DNA of 26,779 nucleotides from a virus, in UHGV virus genome UHGV-1446736. One strand, given 5' to 3'. This document shows, one piece after another, positions 2,284 to 22,530 of this stretch; position 1 is the first letter of the stretch, and each line of letters opens with the position of its first letter. Below the pieces are notes generated by a model that worked only from the letters and a program-made list of their open reading frames with translations, did no database searches and had not been told where the DNA came from. The position numbers and the translations under genes are program-made.

Positions 2284-2636
2284 TACGCCTCCGATGTAAC
2301 AGTCGTTATTCCATAAAGAGTGTCGATTTCAGCGGAAAACATGACACGTCGGGTCGTGGTATCCACCGTCGTATTGAAAGAGAGGATTGATTTAACGCCC
2401 CGCGTTTCGAGGATGCGCTTACGGATCGCCAGGTTGTAGGTTTCCGGCTTCTGCTTACCGAGTACGGACTGGATCCACGGAGTCCCTTCGGTGGTGTCTA
2501 GAAACCATTGCCCATACCACAATTCAAATCGCGTTTTTACCGCCTGCGCCACGGCCTCCGGTGAGTTAATCAGCCAGGTATCATCACCGCTGCCAAAGGT
2601 GTAATCGCCATCGGCGTCTTCACGTCTGTATCGCAT
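2283..2636 (-). CDS. Small baseplate protein (Mu gp46 / gpW-like)
   Basis: 117-aa ORF between the spike and baseplate J genes, translationally coupled to both. Confidence 0.45.
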   Translation of the reverse strand: MRYRREDADGDYTFGSGDDTWLINSPEAVAQAVKTRFELWYGQWFLDTTEGTPWIQSVLGKQKPETYNLAIRKRILETRGVKSILSFNTTVDTTTRRVMFSAEIDTLYGITTVTSEA

Positions 2637-3388
2637 CAGTTTACTCCGTCGGTATTGCTTCCACCGCGCTGAACACCACCATGAGTGTGCGTATCATCGA
2701 TTAGCTTGCCGTTAGCCTTCACGCTACCCAAAAACTCAACAGCACCAGTGATTTTTGAAGCCACACCAGAAACAACAGACCCCACCATGCCCCCCATCCA
2801 GGTTAACAGGCCATGAATGGTTACTTTCTCAGAAAAATCAGCCAGAGGGGCAACCACATCAAGCCCCCCCGGAGCGACAATTTTAATTTTCCTGGTATCA
2901 GGATTAAGCTCAAAATAGGTGCTGCCGTCGTCACTACGCAACTGTGTGGCACTGGTATTAATACCGCTAATCTTCCTTGCCTGCGACTGGGGACCGACAA
3001 TACAAAACGCATCCGATAAATCATGCATTCTGTCATCGACCGGCTCCTGTATCCCGCCACTCTGCCACCAGAAATCAATACAACGATCGGCAAAAATCAC
3101 CAAACATTCATCACCGGCTTTAGCTGGGAACGTTAGCGTACATCCTCCGCCGCGTGGGAATACCACTGGCACATCCACCAGCAATGGGTAATTTTTGGTA
3201 ATGCGGTTGCCGTCATTATCCTTTTCAACCGAACGGATAGCAGGCTGCACAACTGCCGTCACCGCATCAGGATCGAATGACTGAATAATGCCAGGCAAGG
3301 CGACACGGATCTGGTTCTTTGTTGTTTCCCGTTCAGATTTGAATGTTTCGGCAAGGTCGCCGCTGCGGGTCTGGTCAGATACTGCCAT
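2636..3388 (-). CDS. Baseplate central spike protein (P2 gpV / Mu gp45-like)
   Basis: 250-aa ORF with a C-terminal HTHGG (His-x-His) stretch like the apex motif of gpV-type spikes; a GGAG ribosome-binding site lies about 9 nt before the ATG at 3388. Confidence 0.5.
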   Translation of the reverse strand: MAVSDQTRSGDLAETFKSERETTKNQIRVALPGIIQSFDPDAVTAVVQPAIRSVEKDNDGNRITKNYPLLVDVPVVFPRGGGCTLTFPAKAGDECLVIFADRCIDFWWQSGGIQEPVDDRMHDLSDAFCIVGPQSQARKISGINTSATQLRSDDGSTYFELNPDTRKIKIVAPGGLDVVAPLADFSEKVTIHGLLTWMGGMVGSVVSGVASKITGAVEFLGSVKANGKLIDDTHTHGGVQRGGSNTDGVN

Positions 3389-3404: not shown

Positions 3405-3432
3405 AGCAAAAAACCCGCCGGATGGCGGGTTC
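3405..3432 (-). terminator. Rho-independent terminator closing the cargo island
   Basis: Plus strand reads aaaaaa-cccgcc-ggat-ggcggg-tt; on the minus-strand RNA this is a 6-bp GC stem with a 4-nt loop followed by UUUUUU. It lies 20-45 nt downstream of the 123-aa gene stop at 3451. Confidence 0.65.
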
Positions 3433-3450
3433 GTGGTAAATAGTGACTTT

Positions 3451-3822
3451 TTATGAAATCCGTTTAAAAAAATGCTGCGCGGTTAATAATGATTCCCTGG
3501 CAACGTCAGCATTTATCTTGGAGTCAGATAAGCGATAGTCGGCTTCATTCCGCGCTTGTCTCATTTGGCGGAGATCGTATGCAAGTATTTTTAATCTTGC
3601 AGGAGGTATTTCTTCCTTAGGTATGCCCATCCTACCTTGCATGTAGTTGATTAAATTAGCATGGTGATTATGTTCTACAGAGGGGACATGCTTCAGAGCC
3701 TCGCCAGCACGATGAAACATAGCATAGTAGGCTCGCGATACGGCATTACGATAACCAACTTCTTCGTCCAGAGTTAAACAATGTTCACTTGAACGCAAAA
3801 AATCAAAACTCTGAATAGTCAT
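3451..3822 (-). CDS. Hypothetical 123-aa protein, second gene of the AT-rich two-gene cassette (possibly a HEPN-like helical domain, speculative)
   Basis: ATG at 3822 preceded by AAGGA; it overlaps the last 20 nt of the upstream 258-aa gene; AT-rich codon usage unlike the flanking tail genes. Segments AYYAMFHRAGEAL and RQARNEADY loosely recall HEPN-type proteins, but this is unverified. Confidence 0.6.
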   Translation of the reverse strand: MTIQSFDFLRSSEHCLTLDEEVGYRNAVSRAYYAMFHRAGEALKHVPSVEHNHHANLINYMQGRMGIPKEEIPPARLKILAYDLRQMRQARNEADYRLSDSKINADVARESLLTAQHFFKRIS

Positions 3823-4579
3823 AAGTTTCCTTCGTATGGGACTCCCTTAAAACCGAGAAACGAGCAGTCATTTCACAGTCGTCTAACCTTGACTCAGAAC
3901 ATATCCTTTCAGCCAAATCAAAATTCATCAAAACGATATCTTCCGGAGTAGCTTTCTCCACTTGCACGAGATAATCACCGCCCATAGAGCTGAAAATTCC
4001 CAAGCTACCGGGAATAAGTTTACGTTCTTCAAGGATCGAATGAGTGATGTCCCCAAGCAATCTAAACTGCTCAGGTGTACAAACTTTTGCCTCGTAACAT
4101 CCTTTAACACCATCGATAAGCTCACGCATATAGGCTTCAGCTCCGTACTTGTCATCGTTTTCTGACAGTAAACGACAGTGCCATTCCATGTATTTCTGGA
4201 TTGCCGCTAGGTCACCAACCCGATAAGATTCCGCGGCAGCAAGCATAGTCAACATTTTCCCGCCAAACGAATCAGCAAGTTGATAAATAATTTCATGTAA
4301 CTGGCGGTAGTGATGTCGTTTGAAAAGGAAAGCAGCGAAATTCTTTGCAATAGTGATGTTGCCCATTTTCAGATGCTTATGAAAATGTTCATAGGCTAGA
4401 TCATCTTCACCATTTAAAGCATAAGCAAAACCAACCGCGCTAACATCGTTGCCTTCAGTGCTGGATGAATAATTGCGTAAAACGTAACGATAAGTGAACT
4501 CATCTATCGAAGCATTTTCTTCAAGCATCGCCCCGAACTGGATAACATAGTTACTGGATGCTTTAGCTGGTGTAGCCAT
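3803..4579 (-). CDS. Hypothetical 258-aa protein, first gene of the AT-rich two-gene cassette
   Basis: The ORF track starts at 4603 on a TTG; the first ATG is at 4579 (MATPAKASSNYV...) with AAGGA 5 nt upstream. No signal peptide or motif I recognise; AT-rich. Confidence 0.6.
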   Translation of the reverse strand: MATPAKASSNYVIQFGAMLEENASIDEFTYRYVLRNYSSSTEGNDVSAVGFAYALNGEDDLAYEHFHKHLKMGNITIAKNFAAFLFKRHHYRQLHEIIYQLADSFGGKMLTMLAAAESYRVGDLAAIQKYMEWHCRLLSENDDKYGAEAYMRELIDGVKGCYEAKVCTPEQFRLLGDITHSILEERKLIPGSLGIFSSMGGDYLVQVEKATPEDIVLMNFDLAERICSESRLDDCEMTARFSVLRESHTKETYDYSEF

Positions 4580-4624
4580 AATAATCCTTAACCCCAGAAT
4601 CAACTGCCTGAAATTGATGTCAGA

Positions 4625-4660
4625 AATGGATTATAGCTTTACTGATTAACCTTTTTACAC
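4625..4660 (-). promoter_or_regulatory. Candidate sigma70 promoter for the two-gene cassette
   Basis: A perfect TATAAT on the minus strand (plus 4630-4635) about 45 nt upstream of the 258-aa gene ATG; the -35 region (TGTAAA-like) is weak. Confidence 0.25.
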
Positions 4661-4971
4661 GGGAAAGACCCGATGATTTTCGGCGCATCCATGCTGTTCT
4701 GCAGCAGCTGGACGTTCAGGAAAGCTTTTCCGTTACGTTTCACAAACTCAAAGCCGTAATTGTTACCATCACGGGAAGGCATCAGGCCCATGTCCATTTT
4801 CATGTTTGAATAGTCACCATCTTTTCCCAGAAATTTTATCTTCTGTGATGTGACAGTTTCACCGTTAATAACAGTCATTCCGTCACCGGTCATCGTGTAG
4901 TTGCCGCACTGAATTGCAGCCATCGCCGGAGCAGTAACCATCATAACTAACGCCAAACATAACCGTTTCAT
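4639..4971 (-). CDS. Small secreted/periplasmic protein of unknown function (signal peptide)
   Basis: ATG at 4971 (MKRLCLALVMMVTAPAMAA...) gives a classic signal peptide with an AxA cleavage site; the mature protein is about 90 aa with two Cys. An AGAGGG ribosome-binding site precedes it and its start overlaps the hub gene stop (TAATG). Confidence 0.55.
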   Translation of the reverse strand: MKRLCLALVMMVTAPAMAAIQCGNYTMTGDGMTVINGETVTSQKIKFLGKDGDYSNMKMDMGLMPSRDGNNYGFEFVKRNGKAFLNVQLLQNSMDAPKIIGSFPCKKVNQ

Positions 4972-22374: not shown

Positions 22375-22450
22375 TGGTGCTGGTTAACGGACTTGAACCG
22401 CTACCCATTCGCTTACAAGGCGACTGCTCTACCATTGGAGCTAAACCAGC
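22375..22450 (-). tRNA. tRNA-Thr (anticodon UGU), 76 nt with encoded CCA
   Basis: Minus-strand sequence GCTGGTT-TA-GCTC-CAATGGTA-GAGC-A-GTCGC-CTTGTAA-GCGAA-TGGGT-AGCGG-TTCAAGT-CCGTT-AACCAGC-A-CCA folds as a cloverleaf: 7-bp acceptor stem, 4-bp D stem with GG in the loop, anticodon loop with U33 and A37, canonical T-loop. Resembles E. coli tRNA-Thr. Confidence 0.65.
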
Positions 22451-22455
22451 ATATT

Positions 22456-22530
22456 TGGCGGGACAGCGTGGACTCGAACCACGATAAGAAGGTTAACAGC
22501 CTTCCGTAATGACCTTTATACGACTGACCC
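22456..22530 (-). tRNA. tRNA-Asn (anticodon GUU), 75 nt with encoded CCA
   Basis: Minus-strand sequence GGGTCAG-TC-GTAT-AAAGGTCA-TTAC-G-GAAGG-CTGTTAA-CCTTC-TTAT-CGTGG-TTCGAGT-CCACG-CTGTCCC-G-CCA: perfect anticodon and T stems, T-loop identical to E. coli tRNA-Asn, but one T:T mismatch in the acceptor stem and one in the D stem. Confidence 0.5.

Follow-up and report, generated by a model that had tools for sequence, protein, structure and literature searches.

HEPN RNases are recurrent effectors in bacterial immunity and in toxin-antitoxin (TA) systems. In the type VII system HepT/MntA, the toxin HepT belongs to the DUF86 branch, carries a true RxxxxH motif and is neutralised by MntA, which oligoAMPylates a neighbouring tyrosine (PMC7641770, PMC11586414, PMC13000451). 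A different branch is formed by the HEPN-T proteins of the AF0298 (PDB 2hsb)/UPF0332/COG2250 type, of which archaeal and many bacterial members are encoded downstream of an MNT nucleotidyltransferase of about 110 residues with the motif GSxxRGxxxxxSDxD (PMC3710099). Here we describe a locus in which a HEPN gene of this latter branch follows a gene of another kind. The locus lies in UHGV virus genome UHGV-1446736, a stretch of 26,779 nucleotides of viral DNA that is referred to in full as the window, and it comprises a gene for a 123-residue HEPN-domain protein preceded by a gene for a 258-residue partner. For the AF0298/UPF0332 branch, which is without the catalytic histidine, structures exist and we know of no demonstrated activity. 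Unlike the MNT-associated members of that branch, the family described here has as its upstream gene one for a tetratricopeptide repeat (TPR) protein of about 255 residues without nucleotidyltransferase motif or fold; and unlike HepT/MntA, it has no nucleotidyltransferase, and a tyrosine stands where the absent histidine would be.

We assign the 123-residue protein to the AF0298/UPF0332-like branch of the classical HEPN family (PF05168, "HEPN-T"); together with its TPR partner it forms a conserved, horizontally mobile two-gene cassette. Public databases already carry the HEPN annotation, and the novelty lies in the conserved pairing with a TPR protein and in the recurrent status of the pair as prophage cargo. 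We give roughly even odds (a probability of about 0.5) to the reading that the pair is a TA-like module of the abortive-infection type, with the HEPN protein as effector and the TPR protein as inhibitor and/or sensor.

The 123-residue protein is a HEPN-domain protein

A sequence-only reading of this DNA had singled out a predicted helical protein of 123 residues with a possible HEPN-like fold, quoting two strings from it without giving the strand. Both strings, SRAYYAMFHRAGEAL and LRQMRQARNEADY, are present in the translation of an ATG-started open reading frame (ORF) on the minus strand, as residues 29–43 and 84–96, respectively. This is not a chance ORF, since its product matches PHROG 5176 (E 6.6e-35), has 15 homologues at 59–97% identity with 51 invariant columns, and is called as a coding sequence in RefSeq (WP_096938443.1). 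The window is 100% identical to DNA of E. coli SCU-301, for which RefSeq places the HEPN and partner genes at the same coordinates. The exact protein is labelled "UPF0332 family" in IMG. RefSeq naming of nearly identical alleles is inconsistent: PGAP calls the product "HEPN domain-containing protein" in TL20 and OZ282453 (L002, 2652-3023) and "hypothetical protein" in SCU-301 (L001, 4152-4523), with 99.6% identity in DNA, because the profile score is borderline.

Sequence profiles place the protein in the HEPN family. The Pfam HEPN model PF05168 aligns with residues 7–120 over profile positions 10–112 of 117 (E 1.3e-3, 19.3 bits, against a gathering cutoff of 22 bits), and three of ten diverse family members match the same model at about E 1e-3. 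A close-family profile matches AF0298 (UPF0332, PDB 2hsb) at E 6.5e-4 and also the PDB entries 9xbd and 9xbc, described as "HEPN domain-containing protein", with SRAYYAMFY ... H ... RNRSDY in common. When a profile was built from ten divergent members it retrieved 139 proteins, and lower down the list these were named "UPF0332 family" or "HEPN domain-containing", or carried a precomputed PF05168 assignment. The AlphaFold2 model is confident (pLDDT, the predicted local distance difference test score, 91.4; predicted template modelling score, pTM, 0.86) and consists of five helices at residues 5–18, 21–42, 53–62, 74–96 and 105–122, so the description of the protein as helical held. Its four-helix up-and-down core bundle can be superposed on solved HEPN domains: the structural matches, with their scores, included TT1696 (11.4), ST0689 (10.6), the sacsin HEPN domain (10.5), the LsoA toxin (9.4) and the HepT toxin SO_3166 (8.9), as well as Dfer_2879, SsR10, Roquin and TTHA0636, with Csm6/Csx1 also among the fold matches. 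The same proteins occupied the top ranks in Foldseek. Structure prediction and comparison, which the sequence-only reading had proposed as a check, together with the Pfam alignment and the AF0298 profile match, thus bear out the suspected HEPN-like fold, and the placement is established by the combination of profile matches and a confident model with HEPN proteins as its structural matches.

Two side observations concern the database entries encountered. The chains 9xbd_A and 9xbc_A represent a 125-residue UPF0332-type HEPN protein and differ at the motif tyrosine (RNRSDY versus RNRSDF), which suggests that someone is probing the equivalent of Y96 in the window protein; a literature search for the source paper of these two entries found none. 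A PADLOC match of the 123-residue protein to HEPN_IX, a retron IX effector (E 0.052 over 40 residues), was treated as noise.

Ten invariant polar residues mark a putative alternative active site

The canonical Rx4-6H motif is absent from the 123-residue protein. Tyr96 occupies the position of the histidine, as the earlier remark that this motif was not clearly present had anticipated, and a tyrosine is found there in every family member, with the arginine and the next polar residue retained. To define which residues are constrained, conservation was assessed over 33 distinct HEPN-partner gene pairs out of 41 loci, in which the identity of the HEPN protein to that of the window falls to about 28%. 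Ten polar residues are 100% conserved in this set (E21, R25, S29, R30, Y32, Y33, H37, R91, D95 and Y96), and H54 is 97% conserved. R25, S29, Y33 and H37 are spaced at i+4 on one helix, as are R91 and D95, and judging from the predicted secondary structure these residues would line one helix face. H53 and H54 open the extra helix 53–62 of the model, between helices 21–42 and 74–96, and H54 aligns with a histidine of AF0298 and of 9xbd. An R-x-E-x-D-Y motif is likewise common to the 123-residue protein, AF0298 and 9xbd.

This arrangement is that of the AF0298-like proteins. In these, the histidine of Rx4-6H is typically lost while the arginine is retained, with an aspartate for the histidine in several, and a second strongly conserved histidine, supplied by an insert that separates core helices 2 and 3, might give rise to an alternative active site (PMC3710099). 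The window protein shows all three of these features, namely the retained arginine, the lost histidine and a second histidine in the helix-2/3 insert. A search of the literature on UPF0332/COG2250 function returned comparative-genomics papers only.

It is possible to read the same residues without catalysis. The HEPN protein might bind RNA, a nucleotide or some small ligand, a role that has been proposed for sacsin and the KNTase C-domain; the TPR protein would then be the functional scaffold, and the pair would act by binding or regulation. The absence of the canonical histidine favours this reading, as does the fact that, to our knowledge, none of the closest structures (AF0298, TT1696, ST0689 and sacsin HEPN) has a demonstrated RNase activity. 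The invariance of ten polar residues down to about 28% identity, with their i+4 spacing, is nevertheless an active-site-like constraint, even if a specific ligand pocket would be conserved in the same way. Non-catalytic HEPN proteins are indeed allowed for in the comparative-genomic survey of the superfamily, but there that reading is kept for members without conserved polar residues, and an alternative active site is proposed for the AF0298-like clade (PMC3710099). On balance we regard a purely non-catalytic HEPN protein as unlikely.

The partner is a fast-evolving TPR-like protein

The 258-residue partner was modelled with a pLDDT of 90.1 as tandem helix-turn-helix repeats arranged in a superhelix, followed by a small C-terminal domain (Table 1). 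The window protein itself had no match in Pfam, NCBIfam or PADLOC, and it matches PHROG 17809, of unknown function, at E 1.3e-86. Among its relatives, TPR models of Pfam were matched by up to 7 of 53 members, and PGAP names a divergent allele "tetratricopeptide repeat protein". The architecture and the profile matches together identify the partner as a TPR protein. An exhaustive profile search returned just 66 clusters at 50% identity, nearly all of them 250–260 residues long. Conservation in the partner is very different from that in the HEPN protein: in the 33 pairs a single column reaches at least 85% (N80, at 88%). The absence of any conserved stretch from the 53-member partner alignment fits such fast evolution.

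The possibility that the partner is an MNT nucleotidyltransferase was ruled out, as no nucleotidyltransferase was found by Pfam, by the motif G[SG]x9-13Dx[DE] or by fold. The motif test was able to detect such proteins, because genuine MNTs with GSxxRGxxxxxSDxD were seen by the same scan in about 11 other loci. The two genes of the pair overlap, a trait of type II TA layouts, and the overlap makes translational coupling possible.

The TPR-HEPN pair is a conserved and mobile two-gene cassette

The linkage of the two genes was followed from both sides. Six look-ups anchored on the partner (P0028, P0031, P0047, P0060, P0075 and P0088) found a HEPN homologue directly downstream in all six, with partner homologues down to about 17% identity to that of the window. 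More broadly, the HEPN gene came next in 40 of 40 complete loci holding the partner, mostly with overlapping stop and start codons; in nearly all pairs besides that of the window the two genes overlap or abut. The loci comprise, in Proteobacteria, cargo sites of prophages and a chromosomal site, and in addition one locus in Vagococcus. Starting instead from the HEPN signature, a genome scan with the pattern [VIA]SR[AS]YY..[YF]H gave 80 loci, with UPF0332-type HEPN proteins in bacteria and archaea, and a TPR partner lay immediately upstream in 22 of them. The organisms concerned are Proteus, Morganella, Xenorhabdus, Citrobacter, Raoultella, Shewanella, Thorsellia, Massilia, Caballeronia, Aquitalea, Methylococcales, Gallionellaceae, Magnetococcales, Pseudomonadales and the one Vagococcus. 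In all of these the small presumed effector is downstream of its partner, an order that mirrors the MNT-HEPN pairs from the same scan.

The pair occurs in four kinds of context, namely in the same baseplate slot of related prophages, beside Arc/antirepressor (Ant) genes in other phages, in the lysis-terminase interval of lambdoid prophages, and beside proBA in a chromosome. A search of deposited phage genomes returned two weak protein matches only, so that prophages are essentially the known source of the family. Many contigs of a large collection carry the commonest allele (P0136 type), yet by DNA it is present in only 2 of 5,426 complete E. coli genomes, and the DNA of L014 had no match in E. 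coli genomes.

Several individual loci deserve mention in their own right. The pair of Vagococcus sp. WN89Y, a Firmicute (L021, 3265-4378), matches the family profiles with E values of 2e-51 for the partner and 2e-25 for the HEPN protein, so that either the module has crossed phyla or the contig is contaminated. On a Serratia marcescens contig the HEPN gene after the partner was left uncalled by the gene caller of the source (L007, 6713-7135), and an intact 140-residue ORF there contains the full 132-residue P0010, so the pairing can go unnoticed where gene calling has gaps. In Planctomycetes, Bacillota, Burkholderiales and others, UPF0332-type HEPN genes follow ORFs of about 105–260 residues that are neither MNT nor TPR partners (L025-L095), and a Pfam scan of these upstream ORFs gave no match. 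At the end of several of them a helix is followed by a "DPE"-containing strand, a further strand and a last helix, an arrangement that recalls the C-terminal domain of the TPR partner. The idea that this domain is common to such non-MNT upstream ORFs, for example the Planctomycetes proteins of about 105 residues, was dropped when a hidden Markov model of it proved significant only for the TPR family and two short or truncated ORFs. The HEPN-T clade may nonetheless have several undescribed types of partner.

A slot of changing cargo between the hub and spike genes holds the pair

The prophage of the window has lambda-like regulation with a Q antiterminator, carries a SEN34-like myovirus tail and adjoins torS. 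The cassette lies between the baseplate-hub and spike genes of this lambdoid/SEN34-like E. coli prophage (Table 1). Its flanks were found in 317 of 5,426 complete E. coli genomes and the cassette itself in just 3 of these, the other 314 of 317 matching in the flanks only. Other contents of the slot in E. coli are a YafO toxin with a 190-residue protein, DUF4282, DUF2335, STY1065/STY2022, an HMG-box protein, various hypothetical proteins and several unannotated pairs, with inserts of about 0.9 to 1.9 kb in the genomes compared. The GC content of the cargo is 0.42-0.43 against 0.49-0.57 in the flanks. The segment thus behaves as a moron or hotspot, with cargo of distinct composition replaced between conserved flanks, and its candidate promoter signal is limited to a TATAAT hexamer.

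Table 1. Coordinates of the TPR-HEPN cassette, its coding landmarks and its surroundings in the window
Feature	Position	Strand	Basis
HEPN-domain protein gene, 123 residues (AF0298/UPF0332-like HEPN-T clade)	3451..3822	-	ATG-started ORF
Codons of R91-N-E-A-D95-Y96, non-canonical counterpart of HEPN Rx4-6H, end of helix 74–96	3535..3552	-	Read on DNA
Codons of His53-His54, start of extra helix between core helices 2 and 3; candidate alternative catalytic His	3661..3666	-	Read on DNA
Codons of S29-R-A-Y-Y-A-M-F-H37, helix-2 signature of the family	3712..3738	-	S29, R30, Y32, Y33 and H37 invariant in 33 pairs
Overlap of partner 3' end with HEPN start, 17 nucleotides	3806..3822	-	ORF coordinates
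Partner gene, 258 residues	3806..4579	-	ATG start with AAGGA Shine-Dalgarno sequence; same start in RefSeq
Small alpha-beta-beta-alpha-beta domain of partner, residues 169–243	3851-4075	-	Model
TPR-like helical array of partner, residues 5–163, ten helices	4091-4567	-	Model
Moron-like cassette (variable cargo), with conserved backbone on both sides	~3433..4647		Flank-only matches, identity break, low GC
Intrinsic-terminator-like hairpin, 9-bp stem and T-run, just 3' of HEPN stop	3411..3432	-	Scan
TATAAT hexamer, perfect, 50 nucleotides 5' of partner ATG, inside cargo; candidate -10 with poor -35	4630..4635	-	Sequence reading
Membrane-puncturing spike protein, backbone gene downstream of slot	2636..3388	-	RefSeq; Pfam spike N-terminal and Apex domains in homologous loci
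110-residue protein of unknown function (PHROG 3443), backbone gene upstream of slot	4639..4971	-	ORF list, PHROG, RefSeq

The downstream boundary of the slot is formed by a GC-rich hairpin, AACCCGCC-ATCC-GGCGGGTTTTTT, followed by a T-run and located immediately upstream of the spike gene. The hairpin is invariant whether the slot carries HEPN, YafO or divergent TPR-HEPN cargo (the window, L002, L003 and L096), and it is exactly at its 5' edge that sequence identity between slots of different cargo ends. The hairpin may serve both as a terminator that insulates the late operon from transcription of the moron and as the recombination boundary of the hotspot.

The position of the pair next to tail genes raises the question of whether it is part of the virion or its assembly, for example as a chaperone for spike or hub. 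Lying between the hub and spike genes is what such a baseplate accessory would be expected to do; yet 314 of 317 related prophages have unrelated genes in the slot instead, the pair is also found at a distance from tail genes, in siphovirus-like and lambdoid settings as well as in a chromosome, and the HEPN fold is without a known structural role in virions. We find a structural role hardly credible. A second reading prompted by the position is that the pair is a late counter-defence or take-over module of the phage itself, made from the Q-dependent late transcript and degrading RNA of the host or of a competitor, or signalling nucleotides. The cassette is inside the late operon and on the same strand, a strong independent promoter was not found, and some HEPN domains cleave cyclic oligoadenylates, with Csm6/Csx1 among the fold matches here. 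Against this, the pair is also found outside phage late operons, at chromosomal proBA and in Arc/Ant moron regions, and its presence in 3 of 317 slots means that most related prophages do without it, so that it is dispensable for the phage cycle. Such a role is therefore very unlikely.

Two further TPR-HEPN alleles occupy the same slot in other E. coli prophages (L096, 3553-4717, in E. coli JNE23-001, and L097-L100, 4231-5381). Their HEPN proteins are about 28–33% identical to that of the window and carry the motifs R-C-D-A-D-Y and R-K-K-A-D-Y, which suggests a long-term diversification of the module within a single phage position. These alleles bear on whether the pair is a plain addiction-type TA pair, either a stabiliser of the prophage or a selfish passenger, that plays no part in defence against other phages. 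Two overlapping genes with the small effector downstream, the mobility of the pair and the presence of a YafO-toxin pair in the same slot of other strains are all what one would expect of addiction. However, the large and rapidly diverging TPR partner resembles a protein-recognition module and not a labile antitoxin, and highly divergent alleles in one slot suggest diversifying selection of the kind seen in defence systems. Addiction as the sole role thus appears distinctly improbable, with the qualification that TA and abortive-infection roles overlap.

Two observations on the surroundings are recorded here. The 110-residue PHROG 3443 protein has a signal-peptide-like N-terminus (MKRLCLALVMMVTAPAMAA), so that a probably exported protein would be encoded within a baseplate operon. 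Genes for tRNA-Thr(TGT) and tRNA-Asn(GTT) lie at 22375-22530 on the minus strand, between the Q antiterminator gene and the holin gene of the prophage.

A proposed mode of action for the TPR-HEPN pair

The HEPN protein is strongly constrained and enzyme-like, and its obligate neighbour is fast-evolving and has a protein-binding architecture. These two properties, along with the toxin-like gene order and the YafO pair in the same slot, are the reasons for preferring a TA-like, abortive-infection type of module. In such a module the HEPN protein would act as effector, probably as a dimeric RNase, with a putative non-canonical site made up of R91, D95 and Y96 with His54, plus E21, R25 and R30. 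The TPR protein would take the place of the usual MNT antitoxin, binding the HEPN protein and holding it inactive, and it may at the same time be the sensor: the effector would be released when the TPR protein becomes occupied or is lost as another phage infects the cell. The sequence-only reading had suggested the partner as a possible antitoxin or sensor of a HEPN nuclease, and the present results support it. Since there is no nucleotidyltransferase and the histidine is absent, any neutralisation would work by a mechanism other than that of HepT/MntA, presumably by binding. It is from this combination of features that we infer the HEPN protein to be a toxic RNase held in check by its partner, and the pair to serve in defence.

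A number of observations weigh against the module as just described. The canonical catalytic histidine is missing from the effector, and its Pfam score of 19.3 bits is under the gathering threshold. A PADLOC v2 scan of the HEPN protein and its partner gave no significant model match, and an NCBIfam scan of the two matched no toxin or antitoxin model. A DNA-binding domain typical of type II antitoxins (helix-turn-helix, ribbon-helix-helix or AbrB) was not found in the partner by Pfam, NCBIfam or fold. The pair is also rare, being present in 3 of 5,426 complete E. coli genomes. A sigma-70 scan of the cassette detected no convincing promoter, the TATAAT hexamer having gone unreported by this consensus scan because its -35 is weak; expression in the lysogen is thus only presumed, and a cassette within a Q-dependent late operon might be switched on only at a late stage of the cycle of the phage that carries it. 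Finally, we know of no RNase activity for any AF0298-like (R..DY) HEPN protein.

More tentatively, and with some doubt on our part, TPR-HEPN pairs could be an undescribed family of prophage-borne anti-phage systems acting by abortive infection, in which the TPR protein senses a protein of the incoming phage and releases a HEPN protein that cleaves RNA via R..D-Y and His. If so, the large AF0298/UPF0332 HEPN branch would have its first assigned activity, and that branch would be able to swap an MNT antitoxin for a protein-sensing partner. The family offers a compact two-gene E. coli example in which ten invariant polar residues would define the alternative active site. Should the pair prove toxic or protective, it would represent a defence or TA family outside the coverage of PADLOC v2, provide a handle on non-canonical HEPN chemistry and make the hub-spike junction in SEN34-like tail modules a cargo hotspot to mine. 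Should it prove inert, it would still be a correctly annotated HEPN-domain moron.

Comparison with known systems

A literature search for a TPR-HEPN pair of this kind found no paper describing one, and the nearest systems differ from it in clear ways. The pair should not be filed under the type VII HEPN-MNT systems, because the partner that defines them, an MNT, is absent. The system DS-28 (working name "ANEX") of DefensePredictor (PMC13092281) is also from E. coli, combines a small HEPN protein with an uncharacterised partner of about 252 residues and has been shown to protect against phage. In DS-28, however, the gene order is opposite, the HEPN protein has 163 residues with a canonical R-N-S-V-A-H, and the partner is by inspection unlike the TPR partner. 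The identity of the two was therefore rejected, as gene order, motif and sequences differ. Accessions of the family were also looked for in the supplements of PMC13092281, which were partly covered, and none was found in that part.

Functional rather than sequence similarity links the pair to two other groups. RnlA-RnlB and LsoA-LsoB of E. coli are alike in concept, but their toxins are multi-domain proteins of more than 340 residues with the canonical motif, the toxin gene precedes that for a small and labile antitoxin, neither system includes a TPR protein, and the similarity is limited to the fold. Tha of S. aureus prophages (PMC11087260) is a prophage-encoded HEPN effector that protects the lysogen and is silenced in the lytic cycle of its own prophage, and the analogy to the TPR-HEPN pair is one of function only. 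Tha is a single protein of 301 residues with a canonical R-x4-H, encoded in the cI operon and controlled by a separate antisense inhibitor, Ith; it has no TPR partner and comes from another host phylum. Its relation to the window HEPN protein is known here as membership of a common superfamily.

The genomic setting of the pair, finally, resembles the hotspots of P2-like phages and P4-like satellites, where interchangeable small cassettes, including toxin- and HEPN-containing ones, likewise occupy a fixed position in the backbone (Rousset et al. 2022, PMC9122126). The slot described here differs from these in that it belongs to a phage with lambdoid regulation and a SEN34-like myovirus tail, lies between hub and spike genes and has a conserved hairpin at its boundary.
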